From a virus (lineage: Duplodnaviria > Caudoviricetes): DNA of 60,935 nucleotides. Position numbers and translations under genes: made by a program. A model generated the notes under the pieces. It did no database searches and was not told where the DNA came from. It was given only the letters and a program-made list of their open reading frames with translations. Within the stretch, counting starts at the first letter, position 1. The number at the start of each line of letters is the position of its first letter. Location: positions 1 to 60,935 of the IMG/VR virus record IMGVR_UViG_3300018420_000018; one strand, written 5' to 3'. Positions 13,210 to 31,528 of this stretch are shown here, in pieces.

Positions 13210-13914
13210 TTAATCGGTTATAATGTCTCCATTTGGACGAATGTTATAGACAAATTCATCATCATTATAATTGTTTATATTACCACTATGTCCATCAGGT
13301 GAAGTGTACTTCATTTCGATATTGAAGGAAATACTATATCTATCTTTTTGAGTAGGATTTGGTTCAACCATATGCATGAGACCACTTGGAAATAAAATAA
13401 GTTTACCACTTCTTGGTTCAAATCCTTTACTTGTTGCAGTTCTAGGTGAGTTTGGAAAATCTGCAACTACTTTTGGATGAGTGTCAATCATTTCTATATG
13501 ACCTTCATCACCGTCTGCCTTTATATAAAACACACCACTATACCAACAACCATTGTGTAAGTGTGGTTTGTTCCATGCAAGGTGGTCATTAATATTCGCC
13601 CATGAATTACCGATATGCATTTGTGCTTTGTGTCGGTCTAATCCATGGAAAGGCCATACTTCGTCATAGAATGTAGTTTGTATTCTATTCATTAATTTTT
13701 GAAATGCAGGATTAGACTCACAACCATCATGTGATTGCCATCCAGTATATGCATTTGAAAGTTTTCTACCTTGTGGGTCTTTTCTTCTCATACCATCCAT
13801 AGTATCTACAAGAAGGTCTAAGTAGTTTTGGTCTATTCCACGGTTTTCATCTAGATTGGAGTCTAGTAAATCTCTTTCAAATACGTAAGTTGGAAATAAT
13901 AATCTAACGGACAT
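13210..13914 (-). CDS. 2OG-Fe(II) oxygenase (TIGR02466-like); start reassigned to MSVRLLFPT
   Basis: LFPT start, SWANIN, H-x-H (PHLH), SGVFYIK, LILFPS.L.H.V.PN, RYSISFN. Confidence 0.85.
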   Translation of the reverse strand: MSVRLLFPTYVFERDLLDSNLDENRGIDQNYLDLLVDTMDGMRRKDPQGRKLSNAYTGWQSHDGCESNPAFQKLMNRIQTTFYDEVWPFHGLDRHKAQMHIGNSWANINDHLAWNKPHLHNGCWYSGVFYIKADGDEGHIEMIDTHPKVVADFPNSPRTATSKGFEPRSGKLILFPSGLMHMVEPNPTQKDRYSISFNIEMKYTSPDGHSGNINNYNDDEFVYNIRPNGDIITD

Positions 13915-14794
13915 CGAAATCAAACTCCAATTGTGTCTCTTCTGATTCTTCTTTATTGTGAAAAGGACATTCAGGTGGTGGTGAATCTTCCTTATATAGT
14001 TTACCTTTCGGTTTCCAATATCCTCTTCTACGATATGCACCAAATTCCTTTACACTATTTTCATCAAATTCTGTTAATTGACTCCACTCTTGCATAGATT
14101 TATTAGTTGGAACTGTTCTATCAAACTCTGAAGTTCCAGTTGCACGATTGTCTATCCAAGATTTATGTGTATTTACTATATAGGATGCATTCCATTTTTC
14201 TCTTTTATATGGTATAATTTGACAAAGTGGAGTTCCCTTTGGTATTACAAAAGAGTGGTCTACTTTCGGATAAAATATAATTTGTGCATTATCCATACCA
14301 ACATTAAAAGTGTCGGTATCGATTATACCCTGCCAACATGCAAAGTGATTATTTTGAAATAAAAATGGGTCTAAGTAAAAACAAGAATAACCTTCAGGTG
14401 TTTTGATATTCCATGGGTTTCTCATTTTAAATGCATCTTTAATTGGTTTGTCTTCACCCAAATATTCAAATGCATCTAAAGTTTGGGTAATAGGGTGACT
14501 TGAGGAGTTATAACCACTATCGTGTGGGTCATAAGTTGCAAAGGTTTTTTTACCTTTATCGTCTCCACCTATACCATTTATTACATGTATATCTCTATTT
14601 GATAAAAGTATCCAACCACTCTTTAACCAATCGTCCATTGCAGGACATGAACGTATAGTTTGTTGAACCATACCTCTAGTGAGTTCTCCTGCCTTTGCAC
14701 GTTTCCACCAATCAGGCTGAATAGAACTTGCAAGGACTGGTTTAAAGTCCCTTAATGTTTCTTTATTATATGTGTGAAACTCTATCGTTGGCAT
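13904..14794 (-). CDS. Conserved phage hypothetical protein (DUF6065-like), often found beside 2OG oxygenases
   Basis: P.WWK, RSCPAMDD, FKMRNPW.IKTPEGYS, GIIDTD, IPKGTPL.QIIP motifs. Confidence 0.6.
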   Translation of the reverse strand: MPTIEFHTYNKETLRDFKPVLASSIQPDWWKRAKAGELTRGMVQQTIRSCPAMDDWLKSGWILLSNRDIHVINGIGGDDKGKKTFATYDPHDSGYNSSSHPITQTLDAFEYLGEDKPIKDAFKMRNPWNIKTPEGYSCFYLDPFLFQNNHFACWQGIIDTDTFNVGMDNAQIIFYPKVDHSFVIPKGTPLCQIIPYKREKWNASYIVNTHKSWIDNRATGTSEFDRTVPTNKSMQEWSQLTEFDENSVKEFGAYRRRGYWKPKGKLYKEDSPPPECPFHNKEESEETQLEFDFDVR

Positions 14795-15485
14795 GAAAAA
14801 ATTCTTCCTCGTCTACTAATCTTACTTCGTCTCCTCGTAAAACTAGAGACCTTCTATCAATATATCTTGCAGATGATGTGGGTGCATCTGCACCATGTGG
14901 TATTCTACCATCAAATATAATCAACCTGTTTGGTTTAAATTCTATTTCTGCAATTTGGTGGTTTTCAATATGTTCTTGTCTACCGTCTAAACCTTGTTGC
15001 ATTTCATTATATAGTCTTAATTTACCACCCCAATTTTTATTCCAAAATTTATTAGTGTAATATAAGAATGATAAATTCCACTCATCTTCATCTTGACAAT
15101 CTGCGTGAGTTGTTCCTTGTAAACCTTGAGTTTGAGAATTAAGTCCCATATATTGAAATCTTACCCACTTAAATCCAAACTCAGTTTGCAATCTTCTGTT
15201 TAGATAATATGGAAATATAGTATGGAGTTTATCCATATCTTTTTCTAATTTCATACCATCTCTGAAATAAGTTGCACCCCAAAAACTATGGTGAGGTAAA
15301 CCTGTAGGACTTCCACTACTGACTTGATTAGTCTTAGACCATATATTTTCTCTTACAATGTAATCGTCAAAATGATGATGTAGTTCGGTTGCAAGATAAT
15401 TATCTAAGACATAGACATCTTTAAGAGGTAAGTCTTTTATTTTGAAGGGTTCATCGATATGAACAACTTTTACGTCATCAAACAT
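14766..15485 (-). CDS. 2OG-Fe(II) oxygenase, prolyl-4-hydroxylase-like
   Basis: H-x-D (THAD), LYY...W..NWGG.L, FKPNRLIIFDG.IPH, distal R-x-S. Confidence 0.85.
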   Translation of the reverse strand: MFDDVKVVHIDEPFKIKDLPLKDVYVLDNYLATELHHHFDDYIVRENIWSKTNQVSSGSPTGLPHHSFWGATYFRDGMKLEKDMDKLHTIFPYYLNRRLQTEFGFKWVRFQYMGLNSQTQGLQGTTHADCQDEDEWNLSFLYYTNKFWNKNWGGKLRLYNEMQQGLDGRQEHIENHQIAEIEFKPNRLIIFDGRIPHGADAPTSSARYIDRRSLVLRGDEVRLVDEEEFFHANDRVSHI

Positions 15486-15488
15486 ATA

Positions 15489-16046
15489 CTACCTTTCATG
15501 GTCGGGTAGTAATGATGCCTGAGGTAATTGATTTAGATAATCTTGTATTGGTTTTAAATGGTCTTCTCTAGTTGCAAAAATTTCATTTACTAATTGGTCG
15601 TAGATTACATATTGTGAATCTGCAAACTCTAGTACTCTTCTTGCATTAGACCTATATGGGTGATTTGAACCTTCTCTACCTGCAAACGTGACTTCAGTTA
15701 AATCATCAAATCCATAGTTATCAAGAAAATTTGCAATATTACCTTTTACTTCGTCAACTAAGTCTTGTACATATTGATTGTTTAATGTGACTCCTGCAGG
15801 AGGTTCAGAATTTTCAATATAGTTTTCTATAATTTCTTTTTCAGGATTTGTTAATGGTCTTTTGACTTGGTCATCAAAACATTTATCATCATCCCATTTT
15901 TCAATTACGATTTCTATATCATCGTATACTAATACATCAAAATCAAAACCTAGTTCAGGTTGGTCTGTATTATCAAACTCGTATTGTAAACCATTAGGTT
16001 TTCTAATAATAAGTTTTTGGTCTTCCGTGTAAATTAGTGCGTTCAT
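15489..16046 (-). CDS. Hypothetical acidic protein, possibly fibre-assembly chaperone; start probably MNALIYT
   Basis: ORF with host-type promoter just upstream of ATG 16046; function inferred from context only. Confidence 0.55.
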   Translation of the reverse strand: MNALIYTEDQKLIIRKPNGLQYEFDNTDQPELGFDFDVLVYDDIEIVIEKWDDDKCFDDQVKRPLTNPEKEIIENYIENSEPPAGVTLNNQYVQDLVDEVKGNIANFLDNYGFDDLTEVTFAGREGSNHPYRSNARRVLEFADSQYVIYDQLVNEIFATREDHLKPIQDYLNQLPQASLLPDHER

Positions 16047-16052
16047 ACTGTT

Positions 16053-16081
16053 ATTATACCTCAATATTGATTAAATTACAA
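16053..16081 (-). promoter_or_regulatory. Sigma70-like promoter TTGTAA-N17-TATAAT
   Basis: Perfect -10, near-consensus -35, 17-nt spacer; ATG 6 nt after -10. Confidence 0.65.
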
Positions 16082-17653
16082 GGGTAATTTATCTTTTACT
16101 CTCTTGTAGTATTCTAAATTATTTATGCGACTAGAATCCATCCCATCTATCCAAGGGCCTCCTCTAGTGTAGTGAACTGCAGAGAAATCCCATTTTACTT
16201 CAGGGTCATCATATCCTTCAACAAAAATATACTTTTCAGGTATTGGAGATATCTTATCAGTCCATTCAAACTGATGTAATTGAGCACCAGTCCAAGTGTT
16301 CACAACTTCAGGTGTAAGTTTTCTACAATCCTCATGACCATTGTTAAAGAACATCATAGAAGACCACAACTTACATGGGTAATCTATATTCACTTCACCA
16401 TCAAACTTAGTTTCATCGTGTTTCATTTGTGGATACTTAATACATGCAACTGCATCATCTGTATTTAAATAATAGAACATAGGAAGTAGAGATTTGTTAA
16501 AGATAAAATCATCATCTATAAACATACTAAATCCTTCGTAGTTCTCTAAATATGGAATTAAAAATCTACTGTATGTAAACCATGTTGATTGATTTGCATA
16601 TGGTCTTGTATATTCAGGAATTTTTGATACATCTAAAAATTTAATTTCAGGTACAAACTTATTGTAGTCTACAAATCTACCTCCTCCGATAGATTTTTGT
16701 ATACTATCTAAAATAGATTCTTTACATACTTGTTCTAAACCATTGTGTCTACTATCATATCCGATGTAGATGTTTAGTGGTTTACCTTTAGATAATTTTG
16801 TGACTTTCTCACTATGTTCCCAAACATACTTTCTAAAATCTACATTACTGAAATCGACTTGAAACTCTATGGTACCCATTGTCCATATTGCAGACAATCC
16901 TTTATACTTTGGTTTTCTTTTACCATTTAATACTTTATCTTTCCAGTATTCTAAACATTCCTTGACACCGATTGGTTCTGCAGGTATAATATCATGTGTA
17001 TCCCATAATAGTAATTCATGATTAGGGTCTTCCATTTCCTCAAAACAACCTGACCTTACAGAGCCTGGGTGAATCATTAATTGTATTCTATCACCCGAAC
17101 TTTGTGTAAGACCTTGTATAGGTGCCCATAAACCTTCTTCTTGAATACTCTGTATCAACCAATGTCCTTTTGCACTATGATAATACATAGAGTTCAATGC
17201 AATTGGAAAATCTTCTGCATCAAAATCACCCGACTGCAATTCTTCTCCTGCATAGTCTTTTATATCAACCTCTTTATCTGTTAAAGGTTCTGATACTGCA
17301 AATTTAGTAGAGGGAGCACCATGTTCGTTGATAGAACCTGATGTATAAATTTCGGGTAAGAATCTATGATATGAGTTTGCTTGGAATCTTAAACCTTGCC
17401 ATCCTATTAGTTCACCACTTCTTCTTAAAGGTTCTAAATCAGACCACTTACATAACTTAAGGGGAGGCATGTTTTCAAACATGTATTCTAGAACTTTTAT
17501 AAATTCTGAATCATAATCGATATTTTCTAAATTATCTAATTGACCTAAATGCCACTGGTCTAAGTCTCTTCTTTCCTTATGATTAAGGTCTTTGAATGAC
17601 TCGGGAAATGTTAAAAATTGTTTAGTTTGCTCTAGAGTTTTGAGTTTGTCCAT
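16076..17653 (-). CDS. Two-domain protein: unknown / ParB-like N-terminus plus GT-A (GT8/CDI-like) glycosyltransferase
   Basis: IYIGYDSR, STWFTYSRFLIPYL, DxD (FIDDDFIF), KLWSSMMFFN, HYTRGGPW. Confidence 0.8.
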   Translation of the reverse strand: MDKLKTLEQTKQFLTFPESFKDLNHKERRDLDQWHLGQLDNLENIDYDSEFIKVLEYMFENMPPLKLCKWSDLEPLRRSGELIGWQGLRFQANSYHRFLPEIYTSGSINEHGAPSTKFAVSEPLTDKEVDIKDYAGEELQSGDFDAEDFPIALNSMYYHSAKGHWLIQSIQEEGLWAPIQGLTQSSGDRIQLMIHPGSVRSGCFEEMEDPNHELLLWDTHDIIPAEPIGVKECLEYWKDKVLNGKRKPKYKGLSAIWTMGTIEFQVDFSNVDFRKYVWEHSEKVTKLSKGKPLNIYIGYDSRHNGLEQVCKESILDSIQKSIGGGRFVDYNKFVPEIKFLDVSKIPEYTRPYANQSTWFTYSRFLIPYLENYEGFSMFIDDDFIFNKSLLPMFYYLNTDDAVACIKYPQMKHDETKFDGEVNIDYPCKLWSSMMFFNNGHEDCRKLTPEVVNTWTGAQLHQFEWTDKISPIPEKYIFVEGYDDPEVKWDFSAVHYTRGGPWIDGMDSSRINNLEYYKRVKDKLPL

Positions 17654-17688: not shown

Positions 17689-18657
17689 TTAAGAAGATAT
17701 AGGTGTTCCTGGCCATGATTGTTGTAATGCACCATCCCATCTAATCACTGGTGTTCTACCTTGTCTAGCATACGTTGCAGGTTGTCTGTTCTGATATGTA
17801 AACGGTGTTTGACCTTGTCTTGCATATGTACCAGGCTGTCTGTTTTGATACGTAAACGGTGTTCTACCTTGTCTTTCATATGTACCAGGCTGTCTGTTCT
17901 GATATGTAAACGGTGTTTGACCTTGTCTTTCATATGTACTAGGTTGTCTGTTCTGATATGTAAACGGTGTTTGTGCATTCACTGGATTCTGATATGTTCC
18001 AGGCTGTCTATTCTGATAAGTGAATGGTGTTTGTGCATTCACTGGATTCTGATATGTTCCAGGCTGTCTATTCTGATATGTGAAAGGAGTTCTACCTTGT
18101 CTTGCATATGTACCAGGCTGTCTGTTTTGATACGTAAACGGTGTTCTACCAGTTCTTTGATATGTACCAGGCTGTCTGTTTTGATACGTAAACGGTGTTC
18201 TACCAGTTCTTTGATATGTACTAGGTTGTCTGTTCTGATACGTAAATGGAACACGATAAGATACTGGATTTCTATAAGTAAATGGTGACCTATTATTATA
18301 TGTAAACGGTATCTGATAGGATACTGGGTTTCTATAAGTGAATGGTGACCTATTCTGATATGTAAAAGGTAATTGGTATCCTACAGGGTTTCTATATGTA
18401 AAAGGAGACCTTGCGTTATATGTGAACGGTAATTGGTATCCTACAGGGTTTCTGTATGTAAATGGTGACCTATTATTATATGTAAAAGGTTGTCTCGCAT
18501 TCGCAATGTAAGGTACACGATATGTAAATGGTACCCTATAAGTGGAAGGTTGTCTTGCGTTGGCAATATATGGTACTCTATAGGTAAAGGGAACCCTATA
18601 CGTAGAAGGTTGTCTCGCATTTCCTATATTTGGTACTTGATAATTTCCTATTGCCAT
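17689..18657 (-). CDS. PFTY-repeat protein, short partner of pair A (putative fibre strand)
   Basis: 322 aa, of which 294 aa are 18/20-aa tandem repeats; starts MAIG. Confidence 0.85.
   Translation of the reverse strand: MAIGNYQVPNIGNARQPSTYRVPFTYRVPYIANARQPSTYRVPFTYRVPYIANARQPFTYNNRSPFTYRNPVGYQLPFTYNARSPFTYRNPVGYQLPFTYQNRSPFTYRNPVSYQIPFTYNNRSPFTYRNPVSYRVPFTYQNRQPSTYQRTGRTPFTYQNRQPGTYQRTGRTPFTYQNRQPGTYARQGRTPFTYQNRQPGTYQNPVNAQTPFTYQNRQPGTYQNPVNAQTPFTYQNRQPSTYERQGQTPFTYQNRQPGTYERQGRTPFTYQNRQPGTYARQGQTPFTYQNRQPATYARQGRTPVIRWDGALQQSWPGTPISS
17752..18633 (-). repeat. Coding tandem repeat array with 54/60-nt units
   Basis: Units such as PFTYQNRQPGTYxRQGxT and PFTYNNRSPFTYRNPVGYQL with synonymous variation. 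Confidence 0.95.
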
Positions 18658-18668
18658 TTAAATTATTC

Positions 18669-18971
18669 CTAGGTTATTTCCTTTAAAATTCCTCTTATGT
18701 CTCTATATTTGTTTTCTATAGTTCTCTGACCTTCAGGCATTTCATCTATAGGATAATAATATGATTCTCTGATAATATCGTTTGCAATCAAAGCTTCATG
18801 AGTTTGTAGTGCTTCTGTTGCAGACTCCATATCGACATCTGAACCCACTGTAAAATTAGTTAAATTTATTTTTAAGTCTAATTCATAATCAACACCATTT
18901 ACAGTAATCTGATTTAAAGGATTACTTTGAAGGTATTGTATTCCGTTTTCTGTAATTATTTCTACTGACAT
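18669..18971 (-). CDS. Hypothetical 100-aa protein between the pair A repeat genes
   Basis: ORF with GAGGA SD, tightly packed between neighbours. Confidence 0.7.
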   Translation of the reverse strand: MSVEIITENGIQYLQSNPLNQITVNGVDYELDLKINLTNFTVGSDVDMESATEALQTHEALIANDIIRESYYYPIDEMPEGQRTIENKYRDIRGILKEIT

Positions 18972-18988
18972 TTAATTCTTCCTCATTA

Positions 18989-20533
18989 TTAATAAAGTGC
19001 TAACGACATTGGTTGATACGAACCTGCAACATAACTTGGGAACGAAGAACTTGGTATAGTCCATGTATAATATTTGGTTCCTGCATATGGGTTTGTACTT
19101 GCAGTTCCTGATGAAAGTGGTAATGTCGTTGTTGTGTTTGGTAAACTCAATACAAAATAAGTTGCACTAGGGAAATCTTGAGCAAAATCATACTGACCAC
19201 TTAAACCAGTTGCCTTATACGTCATTTCTCCAATTGTTAGGGTAGATGTAGATGCACTGCCTGGACTTTGTCTAATAACCCACTCACCAGCACCATATAT
19301 TGATATAGGTGGTGCAGGACTTTGCGGCCATGTTCCTGCGAATCCTAATGGGCCATATCCATAAGGTGCGGCTGGGTATCCTGTTGAAAACCCATACCTT
19401 GCAGTACCAGTATAACTCGAAGGTTCTACATTAGAAGTCACACTATAAGGCCCCCATAGTATTGGGTCGGGATATGGGTAAGTACCAGGCGACCTAAAAC
19501 TATACGTAAATGGTGATTGTGAGTTTGCAGGATATCTTGCATTCGCAGGATACCTTGCGTTATACGTAAATGGTGATTGTGCATTTGCAGGATACCTTGC
19601 ATTTGCAGGATACCTTGCGTTATACGTAAATGGATTCTGACCATTTGCAATGTAAGGTTGTTGTGCAGAAACAGGGTTTCTATACCCTCTTGGTGTTCTT
19701 GCATTCGCAATATAAGGTTGTTGTGCGTTTACTGGATTTCTATACCCTCTTGGTGTTCTAGCGTTTGCAATGTAAGGTTGTTGTGCAGAAACTGGATTTC
19801 TATATCCTGCAGGTTGTCTTGCGTTTGCAATGTAAGGTTGTTGTCCGTTTACTGGATTTCTATATCCTGCAGGTTGTCTTGCGTTTGCAATGTAAGGTGA
19901 TTGTGCATTCGCAATATATGGATACGGTTGCTGTGCATTTGCAATATATGGTGTTTGACTGTTAGCAATATATGGATACGGTTGTTGTGCATTCGCAATA
20001 TATGGGGTCTGACTGTTCGCAATGTATGGATATGGTTGCTGAGCATTAGCGATATATGGCGTTTGACTATTTACTGGATTCCTATATGTACTAGGTTGTC
20101 TTGCTTGTGCAATATAAGGAGTCTGACTATTTACTGGATTCCTATATGTACTTGGTTGTCTTGCATTCGCAATATATGGTGTTTGTGCATTAGCAATATA
20201 AGGGTATGGTTGCTGTGCATTAGCGATATAAGGAGTCTGACTATTCGCAATATAAGGGTACGGTTGTTGAGCGTTTGCGATATAAGGTGTCTGACTATTT
20301 GCGATGTAAGGATATGGTTGTTGAGCGTTTGCAATATATGGGGTCTGACTGTTTGCAATATATGGGTATGGTTGTTGAACAGATTGTTGACCCGATGCAT
20401 TATTCCACCCTGTTGGTGTTTTTACATAAATTTGGTCAACTGCTTTCCATGTTGTAGAACCAGTTTTTACCCACCCACCTTGAGTTGAACTCCAACCCGA
20501 AGGTGTTTTTACTTTTTGTGACCCTGTCGCCAT
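18989..20533 (-). CDS. PYIAN-repeat protein, long partner of pair A: N-terminal adaptor, 294-aa array, C-terminal globular domain
   Basis: Three xVKT..W hairpin motifs at N-terminus, 20 PYIA motifs, C-domain shared with 28435..29715. Confidence 0.85.
   Translation of the reverse strand: MATGSQKVKTPSGWSSTQGGWVKTGSTTWKAVDQIYVKTPTGWNNASGQQSVQQPYPYIANSQTPYIANAQQPYPYIANSQTPYIANAQQPYPYIANSQTPYIANAQQPYPYIANAQTPYIANARQPSTYRNPVNSQTPYIAQARQPSTYRNPVNSQTPYIANAQQPYPYIANSQTPYIANAQQPYPYIANSQTPYIANAQQPYPYIANAQSPYIANARQPAGYRNPVNGQQPYIANARQPAGYRNPVSAQQPYIANARTPRGYRNPVNAQQPYIANARTPRGYRNPVSAQQPYIANGQNPFTYNARYPANARYPANAQSPFTYNARYPANARYPANSQSPFTYSFRSPGTYPYPDPILWGPYSVTSNVEPSSYTGTARYGFSTGYPAAPYGYGPLGFAGTWPQSPAPPISIYGAGEWVIRQSPGSASTSTLTIGEMTYKATGLSGQYDFAQDFPSATYFVLSLPNTTTTLPLSSGTASTNPYAGTKYYTWTIPSSSFPSYVAGSYQPMSLALY
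18990..19474. repeat. Direct repeat copy 1 (about 485 nt) encoding the shared C-terminal domain
   Basis: Aligns with 28436..28923, with identical tracts of about 105, 83 and 61 nt. Confidence 0.95.
19514..20395 (-). repeat. Coding tandem repeat array with 54/60-nt units
   Basis: Units PYIANAQQPYPYIANSQT and PYIANARQPxxYRNPVxxQx. Confidence 0.95.
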
Positions 20534-20569: not shown

Positions 20570-22741
20570 TTAAGAGTAAAGTACCCATAAATCACCAACT
20601 GCACCATCACCTGCACCAGGCGATGAAGTTGATTGATATATGTTTCTCACATATCCACCTGAGTTCGATGCATTACTTGTTGTAATAGTTCCAAGTGTTG
20701 CGTTTGAACCACTCTCATATTTAGTGTTTAATGCAGTCTGTAATCCATCCACATTTGCAATTGTATGATTATGTGAATCATCTGCAACTGCTGCTGTGAT
20801 TGTAATATTTGATGTACCATTAAATGATGCAGAACCTGAAAGGTCTCCACCCAAACTAATTGTTCTTGCAGTCGTCAACTGAGCAGCACTTGAAGCAGTA
20901 CTTGCATTACCAGTTAATGAACCTTCAAAAGACGATGCTTTTACATTATATGCACCGAATGTCCATTCGTCTTCTGATTCGTCCCATGTTAATGAAACGT
21001 TAGATGATGTTCCTCTTTCTACTTCTATACCTGCATCCTCTGAAGGAGTACCAGTCACATCGTTATTAAGAACAACAATGTTATCAGAAACGTTAAGTGT
21101 TGCAGTGTTTACAGTTGTTGTAGTACCGTTTACAGTCAAGTCACCTGAAAGTGTAAGGTCTCCAAAAGATACATTATCTGATGTACCAACTGACTGACCA
21201 ATACTTACCTGACCTGAACTAATAGAAACACCAGTACCTGCACTAAAATGGGCACGTGTCTCTGATGCACTAGGGCCTGTATATGTGATTACACCAGTAC
21301 CTGAATTATACGCAAGTGAACCATCTCCACCTGCATCCGTGACTGAAACTTTTCCTCTTACTTGTGCATCTGTAATACCTGAGTATGTGATTACACCAGT
21401 TGTAGAGTTATATGAAAGTGTACCGTCTCCTGCAGAATCAGTGACTGAGATAGCACCTCTTGCATCTGAATCTGTATATGTTGTGACTGAGAATGCACCT
21501 GTTGAACTGTTGTATGATAAATCACCACCTGCAGAGAATAAACCTCTTATATCTGAATCAGATAAACCTGCAAGTGTAAGTGTTCCAGCTGCATCGTCAT
21601 ATGTTGATGTAATGTTTGTTCCACCGATAACTAAACCGTTTACGATATCTTCGATTTCTTCTTCTGTTTTACCTGAAGAGTTAATTGTAAGTGTTCCGTT
21701 TGCATCGTCATATGAAGTTGTGATATTTGTACCTGCAGTAATTAATGCATTTACTCTATCGTCAACTCTTTCGTTTGTAAAATATTGATTAGTTGAACCC
21801 TCTCCAACGTCATCTGTATCTAAAACTACTGCACCACCTAGTGATACAGAATTAGAGTTTACAGAGATTGAACTGTTAGAAAGTTTTGCATTTGAAATAG
21901 AACCCGCTAACATAGCGTCTGTAATACCTAATGCTTTTACTTGTAGTGTGTCTGAACTTGTTTCGATTGAACTATCGTCAACATTTACTGCAAGTGATAC
22001 TGCACCTGAAGTTCCACCACCTGATAAACCATCTCCTGCAGTGACACTTTCGATATCACCTGCATCATTAGTGAATGAGATTACACCAGTTGAGGAGTTA
22101 TAGGACAAGTCTCCACTTACTGATATTGCACTTCTTGCTCTTGCAGTTGTATGAAATAAATTTGTTGAACCTTCAGTGATATCATCTGAGTCACCTGAAA
22201 GTTCTGATAATGCATCTTTACTTGCAACTTGTGAATCTACATATGCTTTTACAGATTGTTGTGTTGGAATCTGTGTAGCAGAGTTCGAAGACATATCGTC
22301 TTCGTCTAATACTGCAGTTCCACTTACACCAGTATTTAAAACTGCACTTGTAAGTGTTTTGTTTGTTAATGTTTGTGAACCTGTTAATGTTGCAACAACT
22401 GAAGTATCTACTTCAATATCATCTGCATTTACAGTGATACCTGTACCAGCACCAATATTAAGTGTTGCATCTCCTGAAGTTGCAGTACCTGTTAAACCAT
22501 CACCTGCATTAACACCAGTGATATCACCGACATTACCTGTAATTGTTAATTGGTTGTTTGCATCGTCATATGATAATGAGATACCTGAACCTGCTTGTAA
22601 GAGGTTCGCAACTCTATCGTCTACACTTTCGTCAAGTGCAGAAGCAGATATTGAACCCTGAAATACACCTGCAGAAGTAATGACCTCTGTTCCACCAATG
22701 GAAAGTCCATTCTTAATATTAAAATTCTTTTCTCCTGCCAT
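20570..22741 (-). CDS. Tail-fibre-like virion protein (723 aa)
   Basis: S/T/G/D-rich; repeats D.TEGSTNL.FT, LSYNSSTGVI, YDDA.GTLT; ends with ARTISLGGDLSGS.SF, HNH and GDLWVLYS motifs. Confidence 0.75.
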   Translation of the reverse strand: MAGEKNFNIKNGLSIGGTEVITSAGVFQGSISASALDESVDDRVANLLQAGSGISLSYDDANNQLTITGNVGDITGVNAGDGLTGTATSGDATLNIGAGTGITVNADDIEVDTSVVATLTGSQTLTNKTLTSAVLNTGVSGTAVLDEDDMSSNSATQIPTQQSVKAYVDSQVASKDALSELSGDSDDITEGSTNLFHTTARARSAISVSGDLSYNSSTGVISFTNDAGDIESVTAGDGLSGGGTSGAVSLAVNVDDSSIETSSDTLQVKALGITDAMLAGSISNAKLSNSSISVNSNSVSLGGAVVLDTDDVGEGSTNQYFTNERVDDRVNALITAGTNITTSYDDANGTLTINSSGKTEEEIEDIVNGLVIGGTNITSTYDDAAGTLTLAGLSDSDIRGLFSAGGDLSYNSSTGAFSVTTYTDSDARGAISVTDSAGDGTLSYNSTTGVITYSGITDAQVRGKVSVTDAGGDGSLAYNSGTGVITYTGPSASETRAHFSAGTGVSISSGQVSIGQSVGTSDNVSFGDLTLSGDLTVNGTTTTVNTATLNVSDNIVVLNNDVTGTPSEDAGIEVERGTSSNVSLTWDESEDEWTFGAYNVKASSFEGSLTGNASTASSAAQLTTARTISLGGDLSGSASFNGTSNITITAAVADDSHNHTIANVDGLQTALNTKYESGSNATLGTITTSNASNSGGYVRNIYQSTSSPGAGDGAVGDLWVLYS

Positions 22742-27166: not shown

Positions 27167-27499
27167 TTACCTCGTCACACCAGGCGTCACTATAGCTTGT
27201 CCTTCTATTACTCTACTAGTGCTTCCACCTGAACTAGTTATATTCAAATCATATACATATCTTCCACCTGATAGACCTGAAGTTTGTGTATCAGTAAGTG
27301 ATAATGTCACTTGACCATTTACCTCTGAAATAGAAGTTGCAAATGTTTCAGATACAGTTGAAGAACTATAAGTTTTTCTAATTTGTGCTGATGCAGTATA
27401 ACCTGATAGGTTTAAAACGTCACCAGCAGAATCAGTCACATCTACTGTAATACTGTAATCTGTTCCTTGGTCTATGTATAAATTTGCAATAATCGCCAT
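27167..27499 (-). CDS. Small virion protein, BppU-like Ig domain
   Basis: NLYIDQGTD, LSGYTASAQIRK, LSLT..QT..L..GRYVYD, RVIEG...V.PGVT. Confidence 0.75.
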   Translation of the reverse strand: MAIIANLYIDQGTDYSITVDVTDSAGDVLNLSGYTASAQIRKTYSSSTVSETFATSISEVNGQVTLSLTDTQTSGLSGGRYVYDLNITSSGGSTSRVIEGQAIVTPGVTR

Positions 27500-27517: not shown

Positions 27518-28426
27518 TTAACCCTTATTAAATTGTGCAGTTGGTACTGATTGGTGAATTTTCTCTAACGTACCACTATCATTTACATAAATTTCTTCCA
27601 CTTTCTCTACTGTTCCATTATTATTTCTAAACACACCTTTTACCTTTGCAATCGGGCCAACTGTTCTAGTTGTTGTGTATGGTTGTTGATACACATAGTT
27701 TTGTTGGAAACTATAAGGTGATTGATAAGGATTCTGATATATACTTGGTTGTCTCGCATTCGCAATATAAGGATTTTGATACGTAAACGGATGTTGATAT
27801 AAACTTGGTGTCCTATTCTGATACGTTTGAGGAGTCCTTAAAGGTGTTGCAAAAGAATATGATGCTTGTCTCTGATAGGTAAAAGGAGTTCGACCTTGTC
27901 TTGAATACGTACTAGGTTGTTGTGCAATAAACGGATACGGTTGTTGTAAATTTGCAATATATGGATATGGTTGTTGTGCATTCGCAATGTATGGATACGG
28001 TGCTTGTGCAATGTATGGATACGGTTGTTGTGCATCAGCAATATACGGATACGGTTGTTGTGCCTGTGCAATAGGTGTAGTTGCAGGTCTCCTTGCAATA
28101 TAAGGATACGGTACTTGTCCTTGATTTATAAACGGATATGGTTGTCTCGCTTGTGCAATATACGGATAACTTGCTTGTGCAGATGCAATGGGTCTTGTTG
28201 CAGGGTTTTGTTTATTTGCTTGATACGAAACTTGTGCAATCGCAGGTTGTCTTGCAGGTTGTTGGAAAGTTGCAATATATGGTTGTTGCGTTGTTGCAGG
28301 GTATTGAACATTAATAGGCTGTCTTCTTATTTCTTGAGTATTGATTGGTTGTTGTGAAGGTTGCCTAAACCCATACGGCACTTGGTAAGTGTATATGTAA
28401 GGTTGTTGTGTTTGTCCTATTGCCAT
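27518..28426 (-). CDS. Pro/Tyr/Gln repeat protein, short partner of pair B
   Basis: Starts MAIG; about 255 aa of degenerate PYPYIA/PFTY repeats; C-terminal VFRNNNGT..IYVNDSGT hairpins. Confidence 0.85.
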   Translation of the reverse strand: MAIGQTQQPYIYTYQVPYGFRQPSQQPINTQEIRRQPINVQYPATTQQPYIATFQQPARQPAIAQVSYQANKQNPATRPIASAQASYPYIAQARQPYPFINQGQVPYPYIARRPATTPIAQAQQPYPYIADAQQPYPYIAQAPYPYIANAQQPYPYIANLQQPYPFIAQQPSTYSRQGRTPFTYQRQASYSFATPLRTPQTYQNRTPSLYQHPFTYQNPYIANARQPSIYQNPYQSPYSFQQNYVYQQPYTTTRTVGPIAKVKGVFRNNNGTVEKVEEIYVNDSGTLEKIHQSVPTAQFNKG

Positions 28427-28434
28427 ATCTTATC

Positions 28435-29715
28435 CTAATAAAGTGTTAACGACATTGGTTGATACGAACCTGCAACATAACTTGGGAACGAAGAACTTGG
28501 TATAGTCCATGTATAATATTTGGTTCCTGCATATGGGTTTGTACTTGCAGTACCACTCGCTAAAGGTAAAGTTGTTGTTGTGTTGTTAGGTAAACTCAAT
28601 ACAAAATAAGTTGCACTAGGGAAATCTTGAGCAAAATCATACTGACCACTTAAACCAGTTGCCTTATACGTAAGTTCTCCAATTGTTAAAGTCGAGGTAG
28701 CGGAGGAGCCTGGACTTTGTCTAATAACCCACTCACCAGCACCATATATTGATATAGGTGGTGCAGGAGATTGTGGCCATGTTCCTGCGAATCCTAATGG
28801 GCCATATCCATAAGGTGCGCCTGGGTATCCTGTACTAAATCCGTATCTTGCAGTACCAGTATAACTTGAAGGTTCTACATTAGAAGTCACACTATAAGGC
28901 CCCCATAGTATTGGGTCGGGATACGTATATGGTGTAGGTTGTCTTCCAACTATAGATGCAGGCTGTTGTGCAATCACTGGGTGTTGATAACTTGTTTGTG
29001 CAATTACAGGGTGTCTATAGGTTGTTTGTGCAATCGATGGGTGTCTATAACTTACACTTACCTGATGAGTATATTCTGCAGGATGTCTATATGATGCTTG
29101 ATAATCAGTACTTACCTGATGAGTGTATATTGTAGGGTGTTGGTAAGACTGTTGAAAACTATAAGGTTCACGTCCTTGTCTTGCATATGTAAAAGGTTGT
29201 TGACCTGTATCGTTAAAGTTGTAAGGTTGTGTTCCTTGTGTTGCATATGGTTGTTGAAAACTTTGTTGAAAACTATAAGGTGAACGTCCTTGGTGTGCAT
29301 ATGTAAAGGGTGTTCTACCTTGTGCAATGTAAGGAGTTTGACCTTGTCTTGCGTATGTGAAAGGTGTTCTTCCAGTTGCATTATAGATTACTGGACTTCT
29401 TCCAGTCACCTGAATTGTAGTTTGTGCATTTGCAATGTATGGGTATGCTTGTTGTGCAGATGCAATATAAGGATAGTTTGCAGTCGCTTGAACTATAGAT
29501 GGTATTTGTCTATTTGCAATATAAGGTGTTTGTGCAGAACTAGGTTGTCTTGCATTTGCAGGTTGTCTCGCTTGATAAGTAAAAGGAGTTTGTGCGTTTG
29601 CAGGTTGCCTTGCAATATATTGTGCAATTACAGGTGAACGACCTTGTGCAAGTCCCTGTCCTTGGTAAGGTTGTTGGAACGAAGTTCCTATATTTACATA
29701 AATTTCATCAGACAT
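28435..29715 (-). CDS. Pro/Tyr/Gln repeat protein, long partner of pair B, with shared C-terminal domain
   Basis: MSDEIYVNIG start, about 254 aa of repeats, 162-aa C-domain nearly identical to that of 18989..20533. Confidence 0.85.
   Translation of the reverse strand: MSDEIYVNIGTSFQQPYQGQGLAQGRSPVIAQYIARQPANAQTPFTYQARQPANARQPSSAQTPYIANRQIPSIVQATANYPYIASAQQAYPYIANAQTTIQVTGRSPVIYNATGRTPFTYARQGQTPYIAQGRTPFTYAHQGRSPYSFQQSFQQPYATQGTQPYNFNDTGQQPFTYARQGREPYSFQQSYQHPTIYTHQVSTDYQASYRHPAEYTHQVSVSYRHPSIAQTTYRHPVIAQTSYQHPVIAQQPASIVGRQPTPYTYPDPILWGPYSVTSNVEPSSYTGTARYGFSTGYPGAPYGYGPLGFAGTWPQSPAPPISIYGAGEWVIRQSPGSSATSTLTIGELTYKATGLSGQYDFAQDFPSATYFVLSLPNNTTTTLPLASGTASTNPYAGTKYYTWTIPSSSFPSYVAGSYQPMSLTLY
28436..28923. 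repeat. Direct repeat copy 2 of the shared C-terminal domain
   Basis: Aligns with 18990..19474, one extra codon. Confidence 0.95.
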
Positions 29716-29716
29716 A

Positions 29717-31528
29717 TCATATCACAAACCATAAGTGTCCAGTCGATGTACTACCTACTTGAGTAGGTGCAGTACTTGTTGTCTCGTAATCTAACTGAAC
29801 GGTATTACTGGAAACTGTTAATCCATCACCAGTATTTAGGTCGATTGTGATTGTCCCATCTAATGGGTCGTCATTTCCACCATCTGCATTGTCCACGTAT
29901 GTTTTTACAAGACCCTTATTTGATGCAACACTTAAAATTGCATTCATTCTATCGTCTGAGAAATACTTATTGTTTGAACCCTCTGAAACGTTATCTGTTG
30001 TATTACTTGGGTTAACAGGTTCCCAATATCCTGCACTATCGTCCCATGCAAGTATTTGACCTGCTTGGGGAGATGTGGTATAATTTACATCACTTAAATC
30101 ATCTAAAGTATTGTTTGCAAGGTTGTCTTCTGTTGCAGATAATCTTAATTCATCACCAACTTTACTTACTGTAATATTAGTGTGGTTAGAGTGATTTAAT
30201 ATAGTGTCTGTTCTTGTTGATACCCTTGCATCAGTATAATACAAACTAGACCCTTCTGTCAAGTCTCCCGTATCTTTAGTTGCAAGTCTTGTATCAAAAT
30301 CTGAGTTTGCACGTGTAGAGGTATAATACAAATTAGACCCTTCAGTCAAGTCTCCAGTATCATGGTTGGATATATCTGAAACTGTTCCAGTGACATCACC
30401 AGTTAAGTCTCCGATAAAATTTGTATTTGCAGTAATTGTAGTACCAGTAATTGCGGCTGCAGTTGTACCTCCGATTGTTGTACCATCGATATTACCACCG
30501 TTAATGTCCACTGTAGTCAACGTAGAGGTTCCTGATGCGTTTATGTCAACTGCATATAGGTCTGACCACCTGTTTCCACTAGAACCTAATGCACGGGTGT
30601 TATTTGCATCTGATATTATATCAGAATCTACTGAACCAGTCAAGGTAATCGTATCTGAACTTGCGTTTCCTAAATCTATATTACCGTTTAAAGTAGTATT
30701 TCCAGTGACTGTTAAATTTTGTGTAGTCGATAAACTTCCTGTAAATGTACCTGAAGTTGCAGATATACTTGAAGAGAATGTACCAGTTGTTCCTGCAACA
30801 TCTCCTGAAGAAGTAAGTGAACCAACCCCAACATTACCACTGAATGAACCAGTAGTTGCACTTGTGATTGCACCACTATTAATAGACATAGTTCCGTCTG
30901 TAAGTGTTGGTGCAGTAAGTGTTTTACTACTTGCAAGTGTGACATTGTCTTGGTGATATACATCTCCATCAAACTCAATCTTTGCACTTGTAGATAATGT
31001 TGTAGTTGCATTTATAGACGATTCGTTGAATATTATTCCACTATCGTTGTTGTTGTAGATTACGTTTTCTGCAGTTTGGTTAAAGAAACCTGTTGCTTGA
31101 CCTGAGTCTGCAACTCCTAAATATGAACCAGTGTATGAATATACAGTAATCTTATCACCTGTAGTTGCACCACTTGTAAGTGTAATCTGACTATAGGTAT
31201 TTCCACTTAATACACCAAATCCACCGATTGAATAATCGTCATCCTTTATTTGGTGGTCTCTTTCTACATAAACTTGAAGTCTATCTTTTTTAAACTCTAA
31301 TGTATTTCCAAAACTATCTGCACCTGAGAACACTTGTTGACCTGAAGTTGCAATAAACACAAATTCTTGGAAGAAGAATGATTTATCTTCAATACTATTG
31401 ACTGCATCTACAAGTGTATTTGTGCTTGTAGTTCTTAAACCACCTACATCACCAACATCTGTAGAAACCTCGTTAAAGGTTGTTCTAAAGTCTTCTAAAG
31501 TACTGAATTGGTCTACTAGTTTAGCCAT
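29717..31528 (-). CDS. Tail-fibre-like virion protein (603 aa)
   Basis: N-terminal T.E.FR..FN anchor-like motif; DTGDLTEGSNLYYT repeats; ends AP......GHLWFVI. Confidence 0.72.
   Translation of the reverse strand: MAKLVDQFSTLEDFRTTFNEVSTDVGDVGGLRTTSTNTLVDAVNSIEDKSFFFQEFVFIATSGQQVFSGADSFGNTLEFKKDRLQVYVERDHQIKDDDYSIGGFGVLSGNTYSQITLTSGATTGDKITVYSYTGSYLGVADSGQATGFFNQTAENVIYNNNDSGIIFNESSINATTTLSTSAKIEFDGDVYHQDNVTLASSKTLTAPTLTDGTMSINSGAITSATTGSFSGNVGVGSLTSSGDVAGTTGTFSSSISATSGTFTGSLSTTQNLTVTGNTTLNGNIDLGNASSDTITLTGSVDSDIISDANNTRALGSSGNRWSDLYAVDINASGTSTLTTVDINGGNIDGTTIGGTTAAAITGTTITANTNFIGDLTGDVTGTVSDISNHDTGDLTEGSNLYYTSTRANSDFDTRLATKDTGDLTEGSSLYYTDARVSTRTDTILNHSNHTNITVSKVGDELRLSATEDNLANNTLDDLSDVNYTTSPQAGQILAWDDSAGYWEPVNPSNTTDNVSEGSNNKYFSDDRMNAILSVASNKGLVKTYVDNADGGNDDPLDGTITIDLNTGDGLTVSSNTVQLDYETTSTAPTQVGSTSTGHLWFVI

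Follow-up and report, generated by a model that had tools for sequence, protein, structure and literature searches.

Why would two neighbouring genes on the same DNA strand encode repeat arrays of identical length whose units run in exactly opposite order? This question is raised by a 60,935-nucleotide stretch of viral DNA, referred to here as the window, which makes up IMG/VR record IMGVR_UViG_3300018420_000018 (linear, 60.9 kb, with an estimated completeness of 34%). The two genes, which we call L and S, lie on the minus strand (Table 1), and a reading of the sequence alone had proposed that their products zip into an antiparallel fibre. We propose that the two products probably make up a single long antiparallel beta-ribbon at the end of a tail fibre, L running outward and S returning, as if one hairpin had been divided between two genes; the ribbon would hold a variable host-contact tip at a great distance from the virion.

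Mirror order of the L and S arrays

When the L array (residues 55–348) is cut at its prolines, the segment lengths are 10, 8, 10, 8, 10, 8, 10, 8, 12, 8, 12, 8, 10, 8, 10, 8, 10, 8, 12, 8, 12, 8, 12, 8, 12, 8, 8, 12, 8, 12 and 8 residues. Those of the S array (residues 9–302) are the exact reverse, and each array is 294 residues long, so that the claim of equal-length mirror arrays in these two reading frames was borne out. The block order given for L in the sequence-only reading was right; its frame (residues 47–340) was one 8-mer off, and because the array is moved by that 8-mer no degenerate first unit is required. With residues paired so that i + j = 358, all 40 prolines of S stand opposite a proline of L. 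The fair parallel control uses prolines only, since the residue-pair code described below was trained on antiparallel pairs and is biased in that comparison; the best parallel offset gave a match of 0.62, and 100 shuffles of the S segments gave a mean of 0.49 and a maximum of 0.60. Under a conservative null that considers order only, the probability of an exact mirror is 1 in 102,960.

The symmetry resides in the proteins and not in the DNA, because the arrays are just 26% identical to each other's reverse complement at the register, and at most 35% identical across 121 offsets. No reverse-complement, reverse or direct DNA similarity between the arrays was found at the register, and inverted DNA arms in the L/S region are only short and scattered; the genes are, as had been stated, not inverted repeats. 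The facing rules that had been read from the motifs, such as PYIA units of S opposite PFTY units of L, also hold. Among the four arrays of the window (those of L, S and a second pair, A and B), only L and S pair end to end, with a code score of 327 over 295 pairs versus 61 for L with itself, 56 for S with itself and 30–43 for combinations with A or B; no other combination exceeded 61.

Conservation in homologous pairs

Two scans of IMG/VR gave 215 and 209 relatives, of which the best 80 of each were kept, yielding 157 loci, many of them one contig found twice. Both genes were complete in 137 of the 157, giving 57 distinct pairs, or 58 with the window, from T4-like phages. Array length was taken for each chain separately by a parity-run measure, which superseded a motif-based measure (r = 0.87) that was unreliable on degenerate units. 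The lengths of the L and S arrays, which range from 170 to 532 residues, were correlated with r = 0.98 over the 58 pairs. On a tree of the downstream gene, length contrasts in 29 disjoint sister pairs were correlated with r = 0.84, a value reached by 0 of 20,000 permutations; the length had changed in 20 of the 29, in the same direction in 13 and within 8 residues in 11. In diverged sisters the insertions or deletions were equal in both genes (2/2, 16/16, 18/18 and 46/46).

By prolines alone, the best mirror offset lay at a fixed distance from the L head and the S tail in 53 of the 58 pairs. The proline match averaged 0.91 for cognate and 0.42 for non-cognate combinations, and the cognate partner ranked first in 32 of 36 architecture groups; the mirror is present across these 36 groups, which have different block orders. 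With a residue-pair table whose training left out the tested clade as well as six irregular pairs, the anchored antiparallel register was chosen in 55 of the 58 pairs (56 with prolines ignored), and off-register pairings scored negative. One pair, L035, is off register by prolines yet in register by the code, and the S start of another, L122, is probably miscalled.

The mirror arrays are therefore real and conserved under selection. Mirror co-variation had been set beforehand as a test, and both the length correlations and the kept register came out in its favour; that the register is kept by selection on the proteins agrees with a mirror that is held in homologues while lengths change. Because the L and S arrays co-evolve, antiparallel pairing of the two products is strongly supported, and we regard it as very probable. 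In one set of loci (L015–L022), S-typical blocks lie inside L with the complementary block inside S, which suggests that units may be exchanged between the genes.

Residue-pair code and the proposed ribbon

Parity was counted in 51 pairs, seven irregular ones being excluded. The array prolines, 4,598 in number, share one parity without exception, and the opposite parity holds 5,191 of 5,196 tyrosines and phenylalanines; in both chains a proline recurs every 6–10 residues on that first parity. Such strict alternation is what a two-stranded beta-ribbon would show. Across the pair an aromatic residue faces alanine (1,351), glutamine (1,283), glycine (650), threonine (483) or serine (476), and another aromatic in 273 of about 4,900 cases. 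A two-class rule, by which a PxTY-type unit faces a PYIA/PNIR/PYPY- or PVN/PAN-type unit, is followed by 1,280 of 1,377 segments in 37 non-redundant pairs, and each class can be found on L or on S. An even spacing could arise in one chain without a partner; a shared phase and pair preferences do require one.

In a two-stranded beta-ribbon proline fits only non-hydrogen-bonded pairs, and aromatic–glycine pairs favour hydrogen-bonded positions in beta-sheet. In the ribbon that we propose, the prolines would occupy non-hydrogen-bonded pairs with their backbone outward and would block edge growth, leaving a two-stranded sheet, and on the opposite face the aromatics would lie across small or polar residues of the partner strand. 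Block order would act as an address, only the full-length cognate register being stable. The chains would most likely nucleate at the base, where the L head meets the S tail, and zip outward. The ribbon would be at most 294 × 0.33 = 97 nm long, and shorter if coiled to bury its aromatic face; those of the relatives would measure roughly 60–175 nm. If one side alone gained a repeat, a bulge or overhang would be expected to persist until a matching change arose in the other gene.

The same mirror pairing might be bundled, with three L–S pairs forming a six-stranded needle like that of T4 gp37, or two ribbons packed by their aromatic sides. An aromatic-rich face would suit such packing, the upstream fibre is probably trimeric, and chains of the interwoven gp37 trimer each run out and return (PMC9603124). 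Prolines on one parity of both chains, however, would remove the outward NH groups needed for barrel closure, an aromatic seldom has another aromatic opposite it (the few cases counted above), and the internal three-fold repeat of the head would be expected of a monomer on a trimer (compare S16 gp38, PMC6851490). We consider bundling unlikely, and a lone ribbon of one L and one S fairly probable.

A second pair and natural single chains

Longer relatives of S led to a second type of locus (type II), and the window itself carries such a pair, the circularly permuted mirror genes A and B (27518–29715). In this layout A has one N-terminal hairpin motif, the array and a tip, and B has the mirror array followed by two C-terminal hairpin motifs. 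Of 175 further loci, 63 were incomplete or unparsed; from the others came 19 single chains and 55 distinct type II pairs, to which the window adds a 56th. When the code from the L/S pairs (type I) was applied to 38 type II representatives, cognate combinations scored 76 versus 16 for non-cognate ones. In the A/B pair of the window the register is kept for about the first 130 residues and then shifts, and B has seven prolines on the other parity.

The natural single chains hold both ends in one open reading frame (19 distinct; 41 proteins in an overlapping set, one probably collapsed), and the same anchor was the best among nine offsets in 18 of the 19. All three of the complete long proteins with a three-hairpin head that were examined (L346, L392 and L420; 662–849 residues) are threonine-rich and almost proline-free. 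The internal mirror peak of L392 is 0.80 bits versus 0.44 ± 0.07, and L346 and L420 also have an internal mirror, each with two close peaks; L392 and L420 terminate in an S-like WDG tail, which is the layout of a fused L and S. The genome that encodes L392 (rated complete; protein at L392:2495-5044) gave no match to a T4-like capsid protein. The single-chain fusions, and a type II head that is split between two chains, support the view that the two chains form one structural unit, and they join the length co-variation and the kept register in favouring the two-chain antiparallel ribbon of the sequence-only reading.

About 20 more loci hold cut-off relatives of the threonine-rich single chains. 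Two further single-chain relatives, P0050 and P0070, use a third vocabulary (YHNRV and RRRPV units), and the arms of P0050 look unequal in length. Proteins of the P0015 type were considered as self-hairpins and rejected, their self scores being at background and related loci showing two-gene pairs.

These layouts bear on the idea that S serves only as a transient chaperone or ruler, shielding the L strand while assembly proceeds and not becoming part of the virion. Fibre chaperone genes do often stand after fibre genes (T4 gp38), S has no tip of its own, and in one RNA run contigs covered much of L and just a 22-base piece of S, which is a weak point as contigs cannot rank genes or show expression. 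However, both arms are fused in the natural single chains, the second gene of type II holds two of the three head hairpins, and motif classes swap between the chains, all of which makes a purely transient S very unlikely.

Head, docking and tips

The type II head family consists of three tandem xVNDxGTxR repeats that match the N-terminus of phrog_13729 (for B, positions 14–47, E 3e-4), and this head is also found joined directly to small domains. Because the repeats are split over two genes, one on A and two on B, the type II head would be complete only on the A–B assembly. The L head carries three VKT..W repeats and had no PHROG match; we infer that it forms three beta-hairpins capping the upstream fibre. 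A G(D/H)xWxxY-like motif closes the upstream gene at 57 of 57 type I and 53 of 55 type II loci; among distinct rows that had an N-terminal head and showed the upstream gene, the motif was present in 34 of 36. The same arrangement occurs in the cultured phage ZF40, where the gene for a three-hairpin protein follows an annotated tail fibre gene. The 723-residue protein encoded upstream of L is the putative docking partner of its head, and because the head has a three-fold repeat, as does S16 gp38 (PMC6851490), the analogy suggests that a single copy caps each fibre, which is probably a trimer. Some stalk-less three-hairpin proteins (P0084, P0085, P0087, P0090, P0100 and P0102) start with a signal-peptide-like hydrophobic stretch, a hint that the same cap may have a cellular use.

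The tips were classed by reading, L072 and L122 being moved into the short class. Among the 58 L proteins, 27 end in a short aromatic/glycine-rich tail, 14 in a Hint-like domain (with Pfam matches below the cut-off) and 17 in a variable domain of 150–200 residues. Hint-like tips are seen, for instance, at L021:374-2056, L143:6001-7266 and L161:993-2753; some tips of this kind start with a cysteine after a glycine run and end in HN, and it is possible that they cleave themselves and expose a short tip. A 100-residue middle gene is present in 16 of the 17 pairs with a large non-Hint tip and in 0 of the 41 others; it gave no Pfam or PHROG match, and its product may be a tip chaperone or partner. 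The L and A tips of the window are 94% identical in DNA (454/482; 18990–19474 and 28436–28923), and of 24 other contigs that carry both pairs, 7 have tips at least 86% alike, the rest showing weak or no likeness. This sharing within genomes suggests gene conversion between tips. Variable, swapped and homogenised tips are what would be expected of host-contact parts, and a role of L and S as a host-capture stalk on the virion is likely.

Structure prediction and points against the ribbon

AlphaFold2 predicted beta-hairpins in the head of a single-chain relative (pLDDT about 70 at 450–477). Its model of the single-chain form, from a 40-row alignment, has two 24-residue strands, 16–39 and 415–438, at the expected ends, strand partners not being reported; this weak model is compatible with a ribbon and no proof of one. 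The single-chain protein P0010, modelled without an alignment, was uninformative (pLDDT 35). A complex prediction of L 1–360 with S from single sequences scored 0.00; its controls were also unfolded, so that the result counts neither way. Fold searches with the single-chain model, itself poor, gave nothing at Z ≥ 2 among PDB representatives or at E ≤ 0.001 in BFVD, and searches of PDB sequences with alignments of the head gave nothing significant. The ESM Atlas returned unnamed clusters or sub-threshold leads only; the gp37 families of Pfam and PHROG gave no match, and one Atlas row, gp37_trimer at 0.81, was under the lead threshold. Searches by tblastn with L and with the L head gave no match. 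Matches of S to Pseudomonas phages were rejected as composition matches located among early regulatory genes. Pfam matches to Cementoin and PEGA fell below the cut-off.

Several results weigh against the split-hairpin ribbon. No confident structure was obtained: the single-chain model has a mean pLDDT of 40, its strand boundaries sum to 454 where 456 was predicted (proline pair 16:440), and the remaining arms are unstructured. About one-third of one ribbon face is aromatic, and a lone ribbon must bury it by coiling. Three of the 58 pairs (L072, L147 and L148) have no register, L147 fitting near the base only, and L053, L072, L148, L073 and L017 carry one-sided insertions or deletions of 20–88 residues relative to near-identical sisters, which may be assembly collapses or real intermediates. 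Type II is looser, the cognate partner ranking first in just 25 of 38, and the A–B combination of the window scores 29 versus 31 for a non-cognate one; among the single chains just 7 of 19 score above zero. The similarity of the L head to the xVNDxGTxR three-hairpin profile is weak (hhalign probability 8–39%). Finally, tblastn found no orthologue in cultured phages, so that virion location and function are inferences.

The largely unstructured arms of the AlphaFold2 model and the high proline content would also fit antiparallel pairing in a non-beta geometry, for example a polyproline II double helix. Yet the spacings are all even with no three-residue period, and the same mirror occurs in the threonine-rich, almost proline-free versions, so such a geometry is highly improbable. 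An origin of the mirror in symmetry of the DNA or RNA, in chance or in mis-assembly has already been largely refuted and is barely credible. Repeat arrays do assemble poorly, no public contig examined spans the whole stretch and the five one-sided variants may be assembly collapses, but there is no DNA likeness at the register, the mirror recurs in 36 architecture groups of differing order, and a collapse destroys a mirror and cannot make one.

Genomic context

The window comes from a T4-like phage, as judged from its major capsid protein, which shares 65% identity with its counterparts in Methylophilales phage Melnitz and Pelagibacter phage Mosig. At least half of its sequence words are present in 14 of the 24 listed runs, all salt-marsh, marsh or seawater metagenomes. 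Contigs from three DNA runs cover pieces of the window, with one contig joint within X14 and none spanning the whole stretch. L and S are preceded by a gene for a fibre-like structural protein; next after them come a glycosyltransferase-like gene and genes for 2OG-Fe(II) oxygenases. A GT8-like glycosyltransferase gene is found near the pair in 58 of 58 cases, and in the window (13210–17653) the oxygenase genes follow it; as a speculation, these enzymes might glycosylate or hydroxylate the proline-rich ribbon. A scan for promoters and terminators did no better than chance. A 110-residue gene after B (27167–27499) matches PHROGs for L-shaped tail fibre assembly, and among the loci inspected such a gene is likewise found after type II and single-chain genes.

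Table 1. Features of the L/S and A/B loci in the window
Feature	Position	Strand	Basis or remark
Gene S, 322 aa: putative returning strand and conserved C-terminal RWDG hairpin-like tail	17689..18657	-	
S array, aa 9–302, 294 aa, exact mirror of the L array	17752..18633	-	
Middle gene, 100 aa	18669..18971	-	between L and S
Gene L, 514 aa: head, putative outgoing repeat strand and variable tip	18989..20533	-	
L tip domain, about 160 aa, differs between phages	18989..19474	-	
L array, aa 55–348, 294 aa, putative outgoing strand	19490..20371	-	
L head, aa 1–48: three VKT...W repeats	20390..20533	-	sequence; conserved in 58/58 pairs
Upstream fibre-like structural protein, 723 aa, C-terminal GD(L/M)WxxY motif	20570..22741	-	phrog_697 E 2e-30; weak Pfam PTR
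Gene B (second pair), 302 aa: putative returning array, then head hairpins 2 and 3	27518..28426	-	phrog_13729 N-terminus, E 3e-4
Gene A (second pair), 426 aa: one head hairpin, putative outgoing array, tip as in L	28435..29715	-	
Fibre-like protein upstream of A, 603 aa, C-terminal GHLWFVI	29717..31528	-	

Relation to known systems

A close parallel in geometry is the needle (D11 stem) of the T4 long tail fibre protein gp37, in which, according to PMC9603124, the chain runs to a receptor-binding tip and returns extended, with both ends at the base, in a single-gene interwoven homotrimer 20 nm long with about 50 residues each way. The earlier statement that T4-like fibres are parallel homotrimers is thus right in that gp37 is trimeric and wrong in that, according to that paper, the needle chain turns back within the trimer. 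By sequence register, L and S would share the out-and-back course of extended strands with both ends at the base. They differ from gp37 in having arrays of 170–532 residues each way, in two genes or circularly permuted, with mirror-coded repeats, and in giving no sequence match to the gp37 families. The L/S arrays show no sign of the HxH motifs with which gp37 binds iron.

In S16 gp38, a single chain caps a trimeric fibre by an internal pseudo-three-fold with three tryptophans and bears a variable host-binding part; its cap, a bundle of three helices, leads into a beta-helix and a polyglycine sandwich (PMC6851490). Like T-even gp38, the L gene stands directly after a fibre gene and has a variable C-terminal part; unlike gp38, the L head consists of three short beta-type repeats followed by the putative ribbon, and it has no match to gp38 families or PDB chains. 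Proteins of the phrog_13729 type (for example Pectobacterium phage ZF40 gp68) are likewise encoded right after a fibre gene with a G(D/H)xWxxY end and have three tandem xVNDxGTxR repeats, as in the type II head, but they carry a small domain straight after the head, without a stalk, and the family is without known function or solved structure.

In the tandem beta-zipper of fibronectin-binding repeats, an extended chain pairs antiparallel, motif by motif and in reverse order, with folded modules that are arranged in a row and belong to another organism. L and S, in contrast, both seem to be single extended strands, and they co-evolve. Periscope proteins (SasG, Aap, Rib and Sgo_0707) project a binding domain on a repeat stalk of variable length, as described in PMC8201768 and PMC4458895, and the putative L/S stalk also varies in length between relatives (170–532 residues). 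However, periscope proteins are bacterial single chains with a wall anchor and tandem folded domains, in which an added repeat needs no change elsewhere, whereas L and S are phage genes with units of 6–10 residues and two chains, and each length change would have to be mirrored in the second gene or arm. A two-gene mirror-coded fibre or stalk was not found by full-text literature searches, most subscription papers lying outside their scope, and, as had been supposed, it is apparently undescribed so far.

Conclusions

It is reasonably likely that L and S represent a new class of filament, in which one polypeptide anneals to another, much as nucleic-acid strands do, to give a lone two-stranded antiparallel beta-ribbon 60–175 nm long whose short, complementary, mirror-ordered units set partner, register and length, and that the same plan is used as two genes, as a circular permutation and as a single hairpin chain, with a threonine-rich vocabulary in another phage group. 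If so, this would be a natural, readable code for protein strand pairing over hundreds of residues, it would mean that two strands suffice for a stable beta-ribbon of about 100 nm with no packed-sheet core, and it would offer thousands of natural cross-strand pairs on which rules of beta-register could be tested. It also raises the puzzle of how two genes gain and lose repeats at matching mirror positions. Uncultured coastal T4-like phages would then have a further kind of appendage, which in dilute water could extend their capture radius.

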